19,636 nucleotides of DNA from Caedibacter taeniospiralis (GCF_002803295.2 NZ_PGGB02000004.1:82265-101900), one strand, 5' to 3'; numbered from the stretch's first letter, positions 13,108-19,411 are shown. Made by a program: numbers and translations. Notes: generated by a model from the sequence alone, not told the origin.

Positions 13108-13240
13108 CTAGAGACTAGAAACTAGAGACTAGAAACTAGAGCTTGAATCGCTTCGCGATGAATTGATTTATAAAAAACAACCCATCTTGCAAAGCAAGAC
13201 TCAACTCCTAGTTTCTAGTCTCTAGTTTCTAGTCTCTAGA
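13108..13240. mobile_element. Heptamer-armed palindromic element inserted in 23S helix 98
   Basis: Left arm CTAGAGA CTAGAAA CTAGAGA CTAGAAA CTAG (13108-13139). It is the perfect 32-nt reverse complement of the right arm (13208-13239). The core at 13141-13207 contains GAATCGCTTCGCGATGA...CCATCTTGCAAAGCAAGA. The flanks align to E. coli 23S at about 2790-2810. Confidence 0.85.
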
Positions 13241-14149
13241 CGGGAGATCTCATCTTGAGGCTGGCTTCCCGCTTAGATGCTTTCAGCGGTTATCCATTCC
13301 GAACGTAGCTACTGGGCTATGCCTCTGGCGAGACAACCCAAACACCAGCGGTTCGTTCATTCCGGTCCTCTCGTACTAGGAACAAACCCTCTCAAATCTC
13401 CTACGCCCACGGCAGATAGGGACCGAACTGTCTCACGACGTTCTAAACCCAGCTCGCGTACCACTTTAAATGGCGAACAGCCATACCCTTGGGACCTGCT
13501 TCAGCCCCAGGATGTGATGAGCCGACATCGAGGTGCCAAACTCCTCCGTCGATATGAACTCTTGGGAGGAATCAGCCTGTTATCCCCGGAGTACCTTTTA
13601 TCCGTTGAGCGATGGCCCTTCCATTCAGAACCACCGGATCACTAAGACCTACTTTCGTACCTGATCGAGCCGTCACTCTCTCAGTTAAGCGCACTTTTGC
13701 CTTTATACTCTTGGCGCGATTTCCGACCGCGCCGAGTGCACCTTCGTACTCCTCCGTTACTCTTTAGGAGGAGACCGCCCCAGTCAAACTACCCACCATA
13801 CACTGTCCTCGACTCTCGTCTGAGTTAGAACTCCAAAAATATCAGGGTGGTATTTCAACGTCGACTCCTTCCATACTAGCGTACGAATCTCTTAGTCTCC
13901 CACCTATCCTACACAAATATTCTCAAAGTCCAGTGCAAAGCTATAGTAAAGGTTCACGGGGTCTTTCCGTCTAACCGCGGGTACGCTGCATCTTCACAGC
14001 GATTTCAATTTCACTGAGTCCCAGATGGAGACAGTGTGGCCATCGTTACGCCATTCGTGCAGGTCGGAACTTACCCGACAAGGAATTTCGCTACCTTAGG
14101 ACCGTTATAGTTACGGCCGCCGTTTACTGGGGCTTCGATCCAGAGCTTC

Positions 14150-14452
14150 TCCTACCACTTAATTACTCTGATATTTCTTCTCTTAAGCCTTTATACAACA
14201 AACTCCTCATTCGATTCGCTCGCTTTAATTTAGCTTCTCTTAACCTAGCAAGCTTTTCACTTGCGTAAGCTTCGTAGTAGACAAGAATCCAATCTCTCGT
14301 TCGGCTTGTATATCTACTTCTACCCGACTTATGCGAATCAATCCTTTTCCTTAGGTTTTCACTATAACCCACAAGTAAAAACTATCTAATTCTTTCGAAT
14401 AAATCACGTATACACAATACATATCAAACTCCAAAATAATTAAGTGGTAGGA
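14150..14452. other. 23S intervening sequence at the tip of the H68 region (about E. coli 1865-1875), carrying a GIY-YIG ORF
   Basis: A perfect 16-bp inverted repeat: TCCTACCACTTAATTA (14150-14165) and TAATTAAGTGGTAGGA (14437-14452). The flanking rRNA reads GGGGTTATCC..[insert]..GGAGAAGCTCTGGATCGAAGCCCC, against E. coli GGGGUUAGCGCAAGCGAAGCUCUUGAUCGAAGCCCC. Confidence 0.8.
14163..14422 (-). pseudogene. Small GIY-YIG nuclease-family ORF (COG2827/UPF0213-like), split by a 1-nt frameshift
   Basis: ATG 14422 is preceded by TGGAG 6 nt upstream and gives MYCVYVIYSKELDSFYL (the GIY half), then stops at 14351-14353. The -1 frame from 14372 continues VGYSENLRKRIDSHKSGRSRYTSRTRDWILVYYEAYASEKLARLREAKLKR (the YIG..R..H..G...E half). 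That second frame is the track ORF 14163-14372. Same strand as the rRNA. Confidence 0.7.
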
Positions 14453-14591
14453 TAACCCCTTCAATTAACCTTCCAGCACCGGGCAGGCGTCACACCCTAT
14501 ACTTCCTCTTCCGAGTTCGCAGAGTGCTGTGTTTTTAGTAAACAGTCGCAGCCACCTGGTATTTGCAACCTCTTCACGCTCCAGACGTTCA

Positions 14592-14691
14592 CCTGACCAC
14601 TAAATTCCACGTCCTACAACAGGCTATCAACAAATTGTCTATCTCTACAACTCTCAACAGCTTTCATCCATCATAGAATTTAGTGGTCAGG
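14592..14691. other. 23S intervening sequence in helix 63 (100 bp, no ORF)
   Basis: A perfect 16-bp inverted repeat: CCTGACCACTAAATTC (14592-14607) and GAATTTAGTGGTCAGG (14676-14691). The flanks align with the variable H63 region of E. coli 23S (about 1700-1745). Confidence 0.75.
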
Positions 14692-15245
14692 CAAGTCCTT
14701 CACCCTAATGAGGCACACCTTCTCCCGAAGTTACGGTGTCATTTTGCCTAGTTCCTTCACCTGGGTTCTCTCATCGCCTTGGTATTCTCTACCCACCCAC
14801 CAGTGTCGGTTTACAGTACGGTCAATGGTAATTTATGCTTAGAAGCTTTTCCTGGAAGCCGAGCATCAATCTCTTGGCAGAACCCCGTAGAGCCCTGTTC
14901 CCTCTCACGCCTCAGATCATCATACACCCGGATTTGCCTAAGTGCACTACCTACACGCTTTCACCTGGACTACCATCCGCCAGGCAGACCTAGCTTTCTC
15001 CGTCTCTCCATCGCAACTACCATCGGTACAGGAATATTAACCTGTTTCCCATCGACTACTCCCTTCGGATTCGCCTTAGGCGCCGACTTACCCTACGTTG
15101 ATTAACATTGCGTAGGAAACCTTGGGTTTTCGGCCAATAAGAATCTCACTTATTTATCGTTACTCATGTCAGCATTCGCACTTCTGATACCTCCAGCACA
15201 CTTCTCAATGCACCTTCATAAGCTTACAGAACGCTCCCCTACCGA

Positions 15246-17325: not shown

Positions 17326-17467
17326 TCTAGATACTAGAACGCTCGCTGCGCTTACTCTAGAAACTAGAAACCAGACTCGAATCGCTTCGCGATGATTCAT
17401 TTAAAAAATCATCTCGCACAGCAAGATTCAATCCCTAGTTTCTAGTCTCTTGACACTAGTCTCTAGA
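17326..17467. mobile_element. Heptamer-armed element, spacer copy b (tRNA-Ile to tRNA-Ala)
   Basis: Identical to 17108-17249. It lies directly 3' of the tRNA-Ile CCA end in the transcript. Confidence 0.85.
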
Positions 17468-17544
17468 TGGTGGGTCTGAGTAGACTTGAACTACCGACCT
17501 CACCCTTATCAGGGGTGCGCTCTAACCAGCTGAGCTACAGACCC
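17468..17544 (-). tRNA. tRNA-Ile (anticodon GAT), CCA encoded
   Basis: The reverse complement is GGGTCTGTAGCTCAGCTGGTTAGAGCGCACCCCTGATAAGGGTGAGGTCGGTAGTTCAAGTCTACTCAGACCCACCA, near-identical in core to E. coli tRNA-Ile(GAU). Confidence 0.97.
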
Positions 17545-17545
17545 A

Positions 17546-17658
17546 CTAGATACTAGAGACTAGAGACTAGTTTCTAGAAGTATTCTAGTTTCTAGTCTCT
17601 AGTCTCTAGTCTCTAGTTTCTAGTTTCTAGTTTCTAGTCTCTAGTTTCTAGTCTCTAG
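17546..17658. repeat. Core-less heptamer array between 16S and tRNA-Ile
   Basis: CTAGATA CTAGAGA CTAGAGA CTAG (17546-17570), then TTTCTAG AAGTATT, then ten consecutive 7-bp units CTAGTTT/CTAGTCT starting at 17585, 17592 ... 17648, closed by CTAG (17655-17658). Confidence 0.9.
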
Positions 17659-17775
17659 AAAAAACATCATTTGTAAACACTCAAATACTTCTCGCTCTTT
17701 CTTAATTTCTTTCGTACTTCAAACATCAAAAATTCAACATTCAACATTAAAAATTCAACATCATACTCGTACCTT

Positions 17776-19411
17776 TAAGGAGGTGATCCAGCCGCAGGTT
17801 CCCCTACGGCTACCTTGTTACGACTTCACCCCAGTCATGAATCACAAAGTGGTAAACGTCCCCCTTACGGTTAGACTATCTACTTCTTTTGCAACCCACT
17901 CCCATGGTGTGACGGGCGGTGTGTACAAGACCCGGGAACGTATTCACCGCGGCATGCTGATCCGCGATTACTAGCGATTCCGACTTCATGCGCTCGAGTT
18001 GCAGAGCGCAATCCGGACTACGAACACCTTTCTGAGTTTCGCTTCAGCTCGCACCTTCGCCTCCCTCTGTAATGCCCATTGTAGCACGTGTGTAGCCCTG
18101 CCCGTAAGGGCCATGATGACTTGACGTCGTCCCCACCTTCCTCCGCCTTATCAGCGGCAGTCTCTCTAGAGTGCCCAACTTAATGATGGCAACTAAAAAT
18201 AAGGGTTGCGCTCGTTGCGGGACTTAACCCAACATTTCACAACACGAGCTGACGACAGCCATGCAGCACCTGTCTCATAGTTCCCGAAGGCACAACAAAA
18301 TCTCTCTCGTCTTCTATGGATGTCAAGGGCAGGTAAGGTTCTTCGCGTTGCATCGAATTAAACCACATGCTCCACCGCTTGTGCGGGTCCCCGTCAATTC
18401 CTTTGAGTTTTAACCTTGCGGCCGTAGTCCCCAGGCGGAGTACTTATCGCGTTTGCTGCGCCACTAATCCTTTTACACCAGGACCAACAGCTAGTACTCA
18501 TCGTTTACAGCGTGGACTACCAGGGTATCTAATCCTGTTTGATCCCCACGCTTTCGTCCCTCAGTGTCAGTTCAACCCCAGATTGTTGCCTTCGCCATTG
18601 ATGTTCCTTCCGATCTCTACGCATTTCACCGCTACACCGGAAATTCCCCAATCCTCTAGTAAACTCTAGTCAAACAGTTTCAAATGACCCTCCCAGGTTG
18701 AGCCCAGGTATTTCACATCTGACTTATCTGACCACCTACGAACCCTTTACGCCCAGTCATTCCGATTAACGCTCGCACCCTCCGTATTACCGCGGCTGCT
18801 GGCACGGAGTTTGCCGGTGCTTATTCTTTCGCTAACGTCAAACTATCCAGCTCTTAACCTGATAGCCTTCCTCACGAACTAAAGTGCTTTACAACCCTAA
18901 GGCCTTCTTCACACACGTGGTATTGCTGGATCAGGGTTGCCCCCATTGTCCAATATTCCCCACTGCTGCCTCCCGTAGGAGTCTGGGCCGTGTCTCAGTC
19001 CCAGTGTGGCTGATCTTCCTCTCAGAACAGCTATGGATCATCGCCTTGGTGAGCCTTTACCTCACCAACCAGCTAATCCAACGCAGGCTCATCATACAGC
19101 GACCGCTTGCGCGACCTTTCACCCTCAGGCTTCATGCGGTATTAGCAGACGTTTCCATCTGTTGTTCCCCTCTGTACGGCAGATTCCTACGCGTTACTCA
19201 CCCGTCCGCCGCTATCTAGAAACTAGAGACTAGAAACTAGAAAGTGGAAGTCGAACCTTACCAAGCAAGGTGATTCTTTAGAATAAATCATCGCGCAGCG
19301 ATTCAACCCCTAGTTTCTAGTTTCTAGTATCTAGTTCCTAGACCGCTCGACTTGCATGTGTTAAGCATACCACCAGCGTTCAATCTGAGCCAGGATCAAA
19401 CTCTTCAGTTT
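17776..19411 (-). rRNA. rrs: 16S rRNA gene (1636 bp) with one insert in helix 6
   Basis: 5' end: the reverse complement is AAACTGAAGAGTTTGATCCTGGCTCAGATTGAACGCTGG. 3' end: GTCGTAACAAGGTAGCCGTAGGGGAACCTGCGGCTGGATCACCTCCTTA. Universal blocks are present throughout (GTGCCAGCAGCCGCGGTAATAC, GCATGGCTGTCGTCAGCTCGTG). AT-rich segments at about 19440-19475 and about 17715-17755 are partially complementary and probably form the RNase III processing stem. Ends are accurate to about +/-3 nt. Confidence 0.95.
19216..19341. mobile_element. Heptamer-armed palindromic element replacing 16S helix 6 (V1)
   Basis: Left arm CTAGAAA CTAGAGA CTAGAAA CTAGAAA (19216-19243). Right arm CTAGTTT CTAGTTT CTAGTAT CTAGTTC CTAG (19310-19341). 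The core at 19244-19309 is of the same type and orientation as the H25 copy. The flanks are GCAAGTCGAGCGGT... and ...TAGCGGCGGACGGGTGAGTAACGCG, i.e. E. coli positions about 60-107. Confidence 0.85.

Follow-up and report, generated by a model that had tools for sequence, protein, structure and literature searches.

The ribosomal RNA (rRNA) operon of Caedibacter taeniospiralis contains eight loci at which heptamers of the type CTAGANA are repeated in tandem, in most cases facing a complementary array across a short cargo, and these loci raise the question of whether they are mobile DNA elements or structures maintained in the transcript. The window analysed here is a 19,636-nt stretch of this genome (GCF_002803295.2, NZ_PGGB02000004.1:82265-101900), for which an original prediction, made from the sequence, had proposed a mobile element similar to a MITE (a miniature transposable element with inverted repeats). 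We consider it fairly probable that the elements are pre-rRNA processing hairpins of the RNase III type that have been reshuffled by slippage and by recombination between the arms that they share.

Heptamer arrays in the rRNA operon

The window has a single rRNA operon that occupies its right third and is encoded on the minus strand, a placement that corrects the earlier account; the other 12.8 kb encodes housekeeping proteins, including MiaB, a Trp/Tyr permease and a HAD hydrolase. No rnc gene is present in the window. The pattern CTAGANACTAGANA, two CTAGANA units in succession, has 36 matches on the two strands versus 0.01 expected from 200 shuffles, and all 36 lie inside 13108-19334, within the operon. 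At every predicted locus, Tandem Repeats Finder identified an array with a period of 7 or 14 and 2.7-10.9 copies, and the arrays pair as inverted repeats with arms of 35-42 nt and 83-90% complementarity. The eight loci are therefore real and, as predicted, the arrays are confined to the operon. The accompanying claim of a single isolated CTAGAAA near 9833 does not hold, as five single CTAGANA/TNTCTAG heptamers are present outside the operon, at 2085, 7968, 8918, 9834 and 12675. The tetramer CTAG is avoided in the 12.8-kb non-rRNA flank (15 observed versus 47 expected). The depletion of CCGG (2 observed versus 23 expected) and GGCC (3 versus 23) in positions 1-12800 is far stronger, and the near-absence of these sequences suggests restriction-modification pressure.

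Insert sites were assigned by aligning the rRNAs encoded in the window to Escherichia coli rrlB and rrsB. The operon, which includes two transfer RNA (tRNA) genes, a 23S intervening sequence (IVS) with an open reading frame (ORF), and the heptamer loci are:

12853..19411, minus strand: host rRNA (rrn) operon (Rfam and ARAGORN)
19411-17776, minus strand: 16S rRNA, 1636 nt
17544-17468, minus strand: tRNA-Ile (ARAGORN/Rfam)
17325-17250, minus strand: tRNA-Ala (ARAGORN/Rfam)
17074-13009, minus strand: 23S rRNA, 4066 nt, ~1.1 kb over the usual length
12967-12853, minus strand: 5S rRNA (Rfam)
13108..13240, minus strand: insert in 23S helix 98 (H98), E. coli 2789-2805; arms 13108-13140 and 13208-13240, ~65-nt core 13141-13207
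15244..15680, minus strand: IVS in 23S helix 45 (H45), E. coli 1162-1185; CTAGARA/TYTCTAG arms 15244-15283 and 15641-15680
15286..15636, minus strand: 116-aa PF05635 ORF in the H45 IVS (Pfam)
16292..16436, minus strand: insert in 23S helix 25 (H25), E. coli ~540; heptamer arms, core 16329-16397 oriented opposite to the H98 core
16877..16906, minus strand: one-sided (CUAGARA)~4 array in an expansion of ~84-97 nt near E. coli 171 of 23S (helix 9/10 region)
17108..17249, minus strand: spacer hairpin between tRNA-Ala and 23S; arms and core 17158-17216, abutted by the tRNA-Ala 3' CCA
17326..17467, minus strand: spacer hairpin between tRNA-Ile and tRNA-Ala; arms and core 17376-17434, part of a 218-bp tandem repeat
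17545..17658, minus strand: cargo-less hairpin between 16S and tRNA-Ile (Tandem Repeats Finder and inverted repeats)
19214..19343, minus strand: insert in 16S helix 6 (h6), E. coli 76-100; arms and core 19244-19309, oriented as the H25 core

In every paired element, read in the RNA sense, purine-rich (CUAGARA)n makes up the 5' arm and (UYUCUAG)n the 3' arm, and the element is predicted to fold as a single long hairpin with a stem of 28-37 bp, a minimum free energy of -57 to -85 kcal/mol and z from -6 to -15. The double-stranded RNA of 28-35 bp that had been proposed as an RNase III substrate is thus predicted with a length sufficient for this enzyme. In the H98 insert, the arms are perfect complements over 32 nt, (CTAGAGA CTAGAAA)x2 CTAG against its own reverse complement, as the inverted-repeat search and the fold both confirm; this copy folds at -84.7 kcal/mol (z -15.2) and scores 139 bits with the R1 covariance model. 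The inserts in H25 (-79.4 kcal/mol, z -11.9) and h6 (-63.2 kcal/mol, z -9.2) and the spacer hairpin at 17108-17249 (-60.3 kcal/mol, z -6.3) follow in stability. The arms of the H45 IVS are 40 nt long and 85% complementary. In the cargo-less hairpin (-56.7 kcal/mol, z -8.2), an 11-unit 5' arm faces a 3' arm of ~4 units, leaving ~7 units unpaired. The locus at 16877-16906 had been grouped with these paired elements, and its array is confirmed but its pairing is not. It is one-sided, has no local partner arm and no significant local fold (z -1.2), and the sole complement found for it is the H25 arm ~545 nt away (inverted-repeat pair I13).

Three different cargoes are present, as claimed: the ~65-nt core at five sites, the 116-aa ORF in H45 and nothing at 17545-17658. 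The arms, the cores and the ORF cassette together support a single family with modular arms and variable cargo, located in unrelated helices and in spacers and in both orientations, on which the core alignment and the covariance model agree. The five cores are homologous, with invariant blocks GCTnCGCGA and GC...AGC, and each consists of two half-sites; pairing between the halves lengthens the stem. Those of H98 and of the two internal transcribed spacer (ITS) copies have one orientation, those of H25 and h6 the reverse, and the copies in the operon are 15-25% divergent, the ITS pair excepted. This pair belongs to a tandem repeat (17107-17557; period 218, 2.1 copies) with a unit that consists of a heptamer-armed hairpin plus a tRNA, Ala in the first and Ile in the second, and the hairpins touch the tRNA ends directly (CCA followed at once by UCUAGAG..., and ...CUAGAG by G). 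Both hairpins score 97.9 bits with the covariance model although the adjacent tRNAs differ, which suggests that the hairpin alone has recently undergone gene conversion or been duplicated.

The leader and trailer of 16S rRNA form the usual RNase III processing stem. In the window, these flanks (17722-17761 and 19440-19471) contain 7-, 14- and 21-nt tandem repeats, of ATTCAAC and AATTATGAATGTTA, that are mutually complementary, and the heptamer periodicity therefore reaches the classical 16S processing stem.

Two 23S inserts have no heptamers, and with these included the 23S rRNA has six or seven inserts in total. Both are conserved in a closely related metagenome contig (L134):

14590-14692: insert in H63, E. 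coli ~1730, 102 nt, with unique complementary arms of ~18 nt
14156-14450: insert in H68, E. coli ~1868, 295 nt, with unique complementary arms of 29 nt

Selection on the transcribed strand

The RNA-sense and antisense folds were compared for 26 elements from eight lineages, copies that are not fully independent. The RNA-sense strand is the more stable in 22 of the 26, with a mean difference of -18 kcal/mol (sign test p = 5e-4). G·U pairs abound in the sense strand (11 of the 54 pairs of h6, 27 of the 139 of H45) and are nearly absent from the antisense strand. An asymmetry of this kind is not expected of a DNA palindrome and argues for selection on the RNA stem; selection thus appears to act at this level and not on terminal inverted repeats in the DNA. 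The sense-strand G·U bias is present for cores of either DNA orientation. Simple inversion alone was considered, and rejected, as the source of the opposite orientations since both carry RNA-sense G·U pairs, so that copies must have adapted after inversion or been replaced from other sites.

Related operons

Relatives of the source organism are contained in JACCEA01, JACCDZ01 and GCA_054403375.1. A scan of 241 million metagenome records for an arm plus a core returned two contigs, L134 and L135, both rrn fragments. L134 is 92-96% identical to the window (96% over 3.8 kb) and L135 97.6% identical, and L121 and L122 are further close copies of the operon. The H25 core has the opposite orientation to that of the window in two independent assemblies, L134 and L121, and is slightly more similar to the H98 core of the window (85.6%) than to its H25 core (82%). 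The hairpin after 16S has ~3 units on its long arm in L134, versus 11 in the window, with assembly collapse possible, and L134 also lacks tRNA-Ala and one ITS element. The loss in the ITS is either the exact product of recombination between the same-scoring ITS repeats or an assembly collapse. At positions 1-420 of L134, the 3' part of 23S diverges sharply from the window while the rest is 96-99% identical, and this end is probably either recombinant or the product of a chimeric metagenome assembly.

Operons, whole or partial, were also obtained from more divergent lineages. A (CTAGANA)3 scan of 185,579 species genomes identified L079, a gammaproteobacterial metagenome-assembled genome, and a search with the IVS protein identified the remaining lineages (L124, L125/126, L128-130, L131-133, L138/139, L140 and L141/142). 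The 16S and 23S rRNAs are 75-85% identical, both between the window and these lineages and among the lineages, which are as distant from one another as each is from E. coli. As had been expected of a variable element, empty sites exist in the rRNA helices of relatives. The H98 site is empty in L079, L124, L126, L128, L131, L138, L140 and L141, the h6 insert is absent from the 16S rRNA of L124, L131, L138, L140 and L142, and among the lineages compared these two sites are filled only in that of the window. Relatives thus differ in site, in orientation and in copy number, and the variability anticipated in place of fixed, vertically inherited sites is present. ORF-less hairpins are widespread in these operons, with heptamers that are lineage-specific:

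L126: ORF-less hairpins at Ec404, H25, H68 and the 23S-5S spacer, units CAAGARA and CAGGARN
L124: ORF-less hairpins, unit CTGGAGA
L131: three ITS hairpins, unit GAGGACA
L141: ORF-less hairpins, unit GTGAAAC

The H68 and Ec404 elements of L126 have a core homologous to that of the window, at different helices. In the ITS of L140, CTAGARA arms enclose tRNA-Ala plus tRNA-Ile as cargo, with a duplex energy of -55.6 kcal/mol. Besides its IVS of the PF05635 type, L124 has a group I intron (9078-9756; Rfam RF00028) with a LAGLIDADG ORF in the 23S rRNA, a pairing known from Coxiella burnetii. A DotD gene adjoins the related operon in L125 and, with the Coxiella parallel, hints at a possible affinity with Legionellales.

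The ORF cassette

The 116-aa ORF in H45 encodes a PF05635 23S rRNA-intervening-sequence protein, an S23p/Avd-like four-helix bundle (E = 7e-32; 110 bits versus a cut-off of 33.8), and this member of the family is a classical PF05635-ORF IVS at its ordinary site. In the RNA sense, the ORF is preceded by (CUAGARA)5-GGAG-N7-AUG, the DNA reading GA CTAGAGA CTAGAGA CTAGAAA CTGGAGA CTAGAGG AGATAAG ATG. With this protein as query, 905 homologues were recovered, mainly on short rRNA contigs; exact copies were present on only two short rRNA contigs, and a search of viral contigs for relatives found none.

The cassette, with CTAGAGA/CTAGAAA arms that start at the helix base, is present in nine lineages with 75-85% 23S identity, and its ORF is intact in all nine. 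Its site is H45 in eight (the window, L079, L124, L126, L128, L131, L138 and L141) and H25 in L140, where H45 has no insert. Within L140, the cassette in H25 is nested in another hairpin (1813-1862 / 2153-2190 and 2885-3405, the ITS arms around the tRNA pair being included in these coordinates). The proteins of the window and of other lineages are 59-73% identical, values that do not track the rRNA identities; L128 has the most divergent 23S rRNA, yet is among the closest in protein sequence. This mismatch agrees with the horizontal transfer that has been proposed for the PF05635 type of IVS (PMC4990558). Judged from these sequences, the CTAGAGA/CTAGAAA arms would belong to the cassette and accompany it into hosts that are very divergent.

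Origin of the elements

In the processing reading, the modules are transcribed hairpins, namely IVSs at H25, H45 and H98 of 23S and h6 of 16S, together with the spacer hairpins that abut the tRNAs. In the pre-rRNA, the (CUAGARA)n 5' arm would pair with the (UYUCUAG)n 3' arm to form 28-37 bp of nearly perfect double-stranded RNA, with an ORF-less ~65-nt core merely extending the hairpin. By analogy with the IVSs of Coxiella, Leptospira and Salmonella, RNase III would cut these stems, removing the cargo, leaving the rRNA fragmented yet functional and freeing the tRNAs. At the DNA level, replication slippage would make and resize the 7-nt arrays, and this origin of the periodicity is suggested because, among the long simple repeats of bacteria, heptamers are the commonest, an abundance attributed to slippage of the polymerase (Mrazek 2007, as related in PMC4679880 and PMC4692102). 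Pairing in multiple registers would tolerate arms of unequal length. As the arms are common to all modules, slippage, gene conversion and recombination could expand the arrays, invert the cores and swap or copy the cargo, with exchange presumably occurring between permissive helix tips, while selection at the RNA level would keep the stems paired throughout. The ORF cassette, with its conserved arms, would move from host to host and would have changed helix at least once.

Several points weigh against this explanation. Excision, fragmentation and RNase III cleavage are drawn from analogy, and H98 and h6 are helices that tolerate insertions, so that the inserts could be retained as expansion segments. 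The ITS differences of L134, including the loss of tRNA-Ala and an element and the short array, could be a collapse of short-read assembly. Slippage does not explain why CTAGARA persists across hosts with 75-85% rRNA identity, a persistence that therefore needs sequence-specific selection or horizontal transfer, and the mechanism leaves the seeding of an element at a new helix tip unexplained.

The MITE-like DNA element of the original prediction is unlikely, but accounts for some of the same features. The PF05635 protein, or a transposase encoded elsewhere, would recognise the arms as terminal inverted repeats, the ORF cassette would be autonomous and the ~130-bp core elements non-autonomous, and insertion would occur in permissive helix tips and spacers. 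Different cargo within the same arms, cores in both orientations and lineage-specific sites (H98 and h6 in the window only, Ec404 and H68 in L126, the cassette in H25 of L140) all fit this explanation, as do ORF identities out of step with those of the rRNA, as for L128, and the proposed horizontal transfer of the PF05635 type of IVS (PMC4990558). However, no target-site duplication is present at any insertion when the insert flanks are read directly, as at H98 where ...ctcccg precedes TCTAGAG...CTCTAG and cttaagg follows, although a duplication of CTAG or TCTAGA could hide inside the arms. No autonomous transposase element with the same ends was found; the sole ORF with those ends encodes the PF05635/bAvd-like protein, which has no transposase domain, and PF05635 is not a transposase or recombinase family. 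The divergence of 15-25% between operon copies, apart from the ITS pair, also argues against a MITE, and the G·U bias, being strand-specific, indicates that the elements have long been resident and under selection at the RNA level.

Copies at other locations, likewise expected of a mobile element, are almost lacking in the flanks and metagenome records searched. The R1 covariance model has no matches in window positions 1-12800 or in the non-rRNA flanks of L124, L125, L128 and L131, and in ~70 kb of flanks no copy lies outside an rrn operon, with two exceptions: in L079, an array that follows closely downstream of the 5S terminator, and in L045 a weaker match, of 46 bits, to an unrelated Thiotrichaceae array. 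The arm-plus-core scan of the metagenome records likewise returned only its two rrn fragments. No catalogued family was matched in Rfam 15, where no family reaches its gathering score for the elements and those that pass are all rRNA or tRNA families; for the ITS region, E-value mode yields nothing beyond sub-threshold matches, due to chance, to hairpins of miRNA precursors. BLAST with the H98 copy found nothing in phages and nothing related in plasmids, where the matches were limited to a simple (CTAGAAA)15 array of small Acinetobacter plasmids. Mobility of the MITE kind is thus not borne out by target sites, by a transposase or by copies in the flanks and metagenome records.

Just 3' of the 5S terminator of L079 lies a ~570-bp composite palindrome (2420-2990), in which ~12 CTAGRGA units and ~36 TCYCTAG units stand on opposite sides of G/C-rich inverted repeats with an A/T-rich centre. 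No other large heptamer palindrome was seen beyond the rRNA and tRNA genes.

It is doubtful that the PF05635 protein binds the heptamers, as DNA or as RNA, and promotes the copying of arm-bounded cassettes to new helix tips, spacers and species. If it does, such a self-propagating rRNA-operon element would provide a function for the 'S23p' IVS proteins and proof that bacterial IVSs are mobile.

A third explanation, which we regard as improbable, requires no movement: the hairpins would be vertically inherited expansions with arms that converge on CTAGARA as the sequence read by RNase III, by a processing factor or by PF05635. Heptamer hairpins do occupy orthologous sites (H25, H45 and the tRNA-Ile/tRNA-Ala spacer) in several divergent lineages, RNA-level selection is evident, and the recurrence of CTAG-heptamer hairpins in unrelated phyla suggests a favoured motif. 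Against this, the ORF-less hairpins of other lineages use CAAGARA, CTGGAGA, GAGGACA or GTGAAAC, so the CTAGARA unit is not universally required. The cores are closer to their paralogues within a genome than to the cores at orthologous positions elsewhere, which suggests that the elements group by genome and not by site. In addition, the cassette switches helix in L140 and the core is inverted between relatives that are 96% identical.

An assembly or chimera artefact, with low-complexity repeats mis-joined within the rRNA operon, has a negligible probability: assembly is difficult for rRNA operons and for tandem repeats, and L134 differs in its ITS and seems chimeric at its 3' end, but four independent metagenome contigs (L121, L122, L134 and L135) have the same elements in the same places with 96-99% identity, eight other lineages have homologous architectures and the flanking rRNA helices are intact.

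Relation to known systems

Salmonella, Leptospira and Coxiella provide the classical examples of IVSs in H25 and H45 that RNase III removes. Those of the PF05635 type in the 23S rRNA of Coxiella burnetii and Leptospira were reportedly described by Afseth in 1995 and by Ralph and McClelland in 1993, and the H25 and H45 IVSs of Salmonella and other Enterobacteriaceae are said to have been shown by Burgin in 1990 to be excised by RNase III. To our knowledge, the origin and mobility of IVSs and the role of the PF05635 protein have been open questions since 1990-93. The family had been considered unlike ordinary IVSs, which is not so for its H45 copy, an ordinary PF05635-ORF IVS at a classical site, or for the location of the H25 copy, also classical.

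The likeness to the Coxiella and Leptospira IVS includes the position in helix 45, an insert of ~430-450 nt, the same Pfam ORF and a terminal stem of ~28-35 bp. In Coxiella burnetii, the H45 PF05635 IVS has a 28-bp stem with, in its 5' arm, two to three strain-variable GACAGAT heptamers shortly before the ATG; the first of these repeats is where RNase III cuts (Warrier et al. 2016, PMC4990558). Tandem heptamers directly before the Shine-Dalgarno sequence and ATG are therefore common to both, as GACAGAT in Coxiella and, phase-shifted, as GACTAGA here. In contrast to Coxiella, however, the unit in the window is CTAGARA and builds both arms in full, and the ORF, reported to be decaying in Coxiella, is intact in nine lineages. 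The arms also recur, unlike those of Coxiella and Leptospira, on ORF-less cores and an empty hairpin, at seven other loci including 16S.

The IVSs of Salmonella and other Enterobacteriaceae are similar in being short ORF-less hairpins at the tips of H25 and H45 with a patchy distribution. They are removed without re-ligation, leaving a fragmented, functional 23S rRNA, and a similar outcome is predicted here from the hairpins. Their sequences are, however, unrelated and not built of tandem repeats, and they are not known to share arms across sites and spacer hairpins or to occur in 16S. With bacterial heptanucleotide simple sequence repeats, such as the short tandemly repeated repetitive sequences of cyanobacteria, TAACTGA in Beggiatoaceae (PMC4679880) and GGGAATC in Xanthomonas (PMC4692102), the elements share tandem 7-nt units that vary in copy number between close relatives, occasional inverted pairs able to form hairpins, and stops in several frames. 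Those repeats differ in unit, are intergenic or in 5' untranslated regions and not the paired arms of rRNA inserts, and have no conserved cargo. MITEs and repeats of the REP/BIME, RPE and Correia types are likewise palindromic, non-coding, multi-copy elements of ~130 bp found in either orientation, possibly with a larger ORF-bearing relative that has the same ends; unlike these, the elements here have no target-site duplication or transposase, are confined to rrn operons in the sequence examined, and have tandem-repeat arms, a G·U signature and no Rfam match.

Heptamers in IVS arms are thus not new, given those of Coxiella (PMC4990558), so that the novelty proposed for the architecture stands only for a family that shares its arms across several sites. 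Full-text literature searches found no description of such a family, or of such elements in 16S. What appears to be undescribed is that the same arms enclose an ORF, a ~65-nt core or nothing, at as many as eight sites of one operon, and also the conservation of the cassette arms in nine lineages with a switch to H25 in one, the inversion of the H25 core and the G·U pairs of the transcribed strand.

The operon and its relatives are unusually informative in that a single type of arm bounds an ORF cassette, a non-coding core or no cargo at all, and in L140 also a pair of tRNAs. The system makes it possible to test the exchange of cargo between arms, dependence on RNase III, the binding of the protein to heptamers and the mobility of IVSs. 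With ~1.1 kb added to the 23S rRNA and ~120 nt to the V1 region of 16S, the inserts would also disturb amplicon and other rRNA-based surveys of these bacteria.

CTAG-heptamer arrays elsewhere

The (CTAGANA)3 scan of the species genomes identified at least 120 loci in many phyla. Among the matches listed, CTAGAAA/TTTCTAG arrays occur in many unrelated phyla, including L009, L037, L057 and L067 (Ohtaekwangia) and L042, L060 and L091 (Terriglobia), and further array loci include L035, L040, L047, L051, L075, L089, L096 and L113. An inverted partner less than 400 nt away, which would allow a hairpin to form, accompanies 24 of 122 arrays among the matches listed, often right after a stop codon. Such CTAG-heptamer hairpins may be a recurrent intergenic 'insulator/terminator' hairpin, a structure for which full-text literature searches found no description. 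Any (CTAGNNN)n with n of at least 3 has TAG in all six reading frames; this is also true of the arms in the operon, and a stop-codon role for these was rejected as it has no evident benefit in untranslated rRNA. The property may be relevant to the intergenic CTAG-heptamer hairpins that follow stop codons in other phyla.

One metagenome contig (L143/L144; JGI 3300022816 Ga0255657_155357) was considered as a relative and not used, as it is a palindromic inverted duplication and probably misassembled. It has a PF05635 gene near nusA-infB-rbfA-truB-rpsO and a partial large-subunit rRNA that best matches the archaeal model. A phage contig (L136; IMG/VR UViG_3300009826_000281) has, at 3590-3722, an intergenic CTAG-heptamer hairpin that is unrelated to the elements of the window, contains Shine-Dalgarno-like GGAGGTGAG motifs and ends in ...CTCTAGATG, its last unit overlapping the start codon of the next gene. 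The Acinetobacter baumannii plasmid p6200-9.327kb (L137; NZ_CP010400.1) has a perfect (CTAGAAA)~15 array at 1434-1535, downstream of rep genes and a terminator-like hairpin, and the same array is also present in NZ_CP114259.1.

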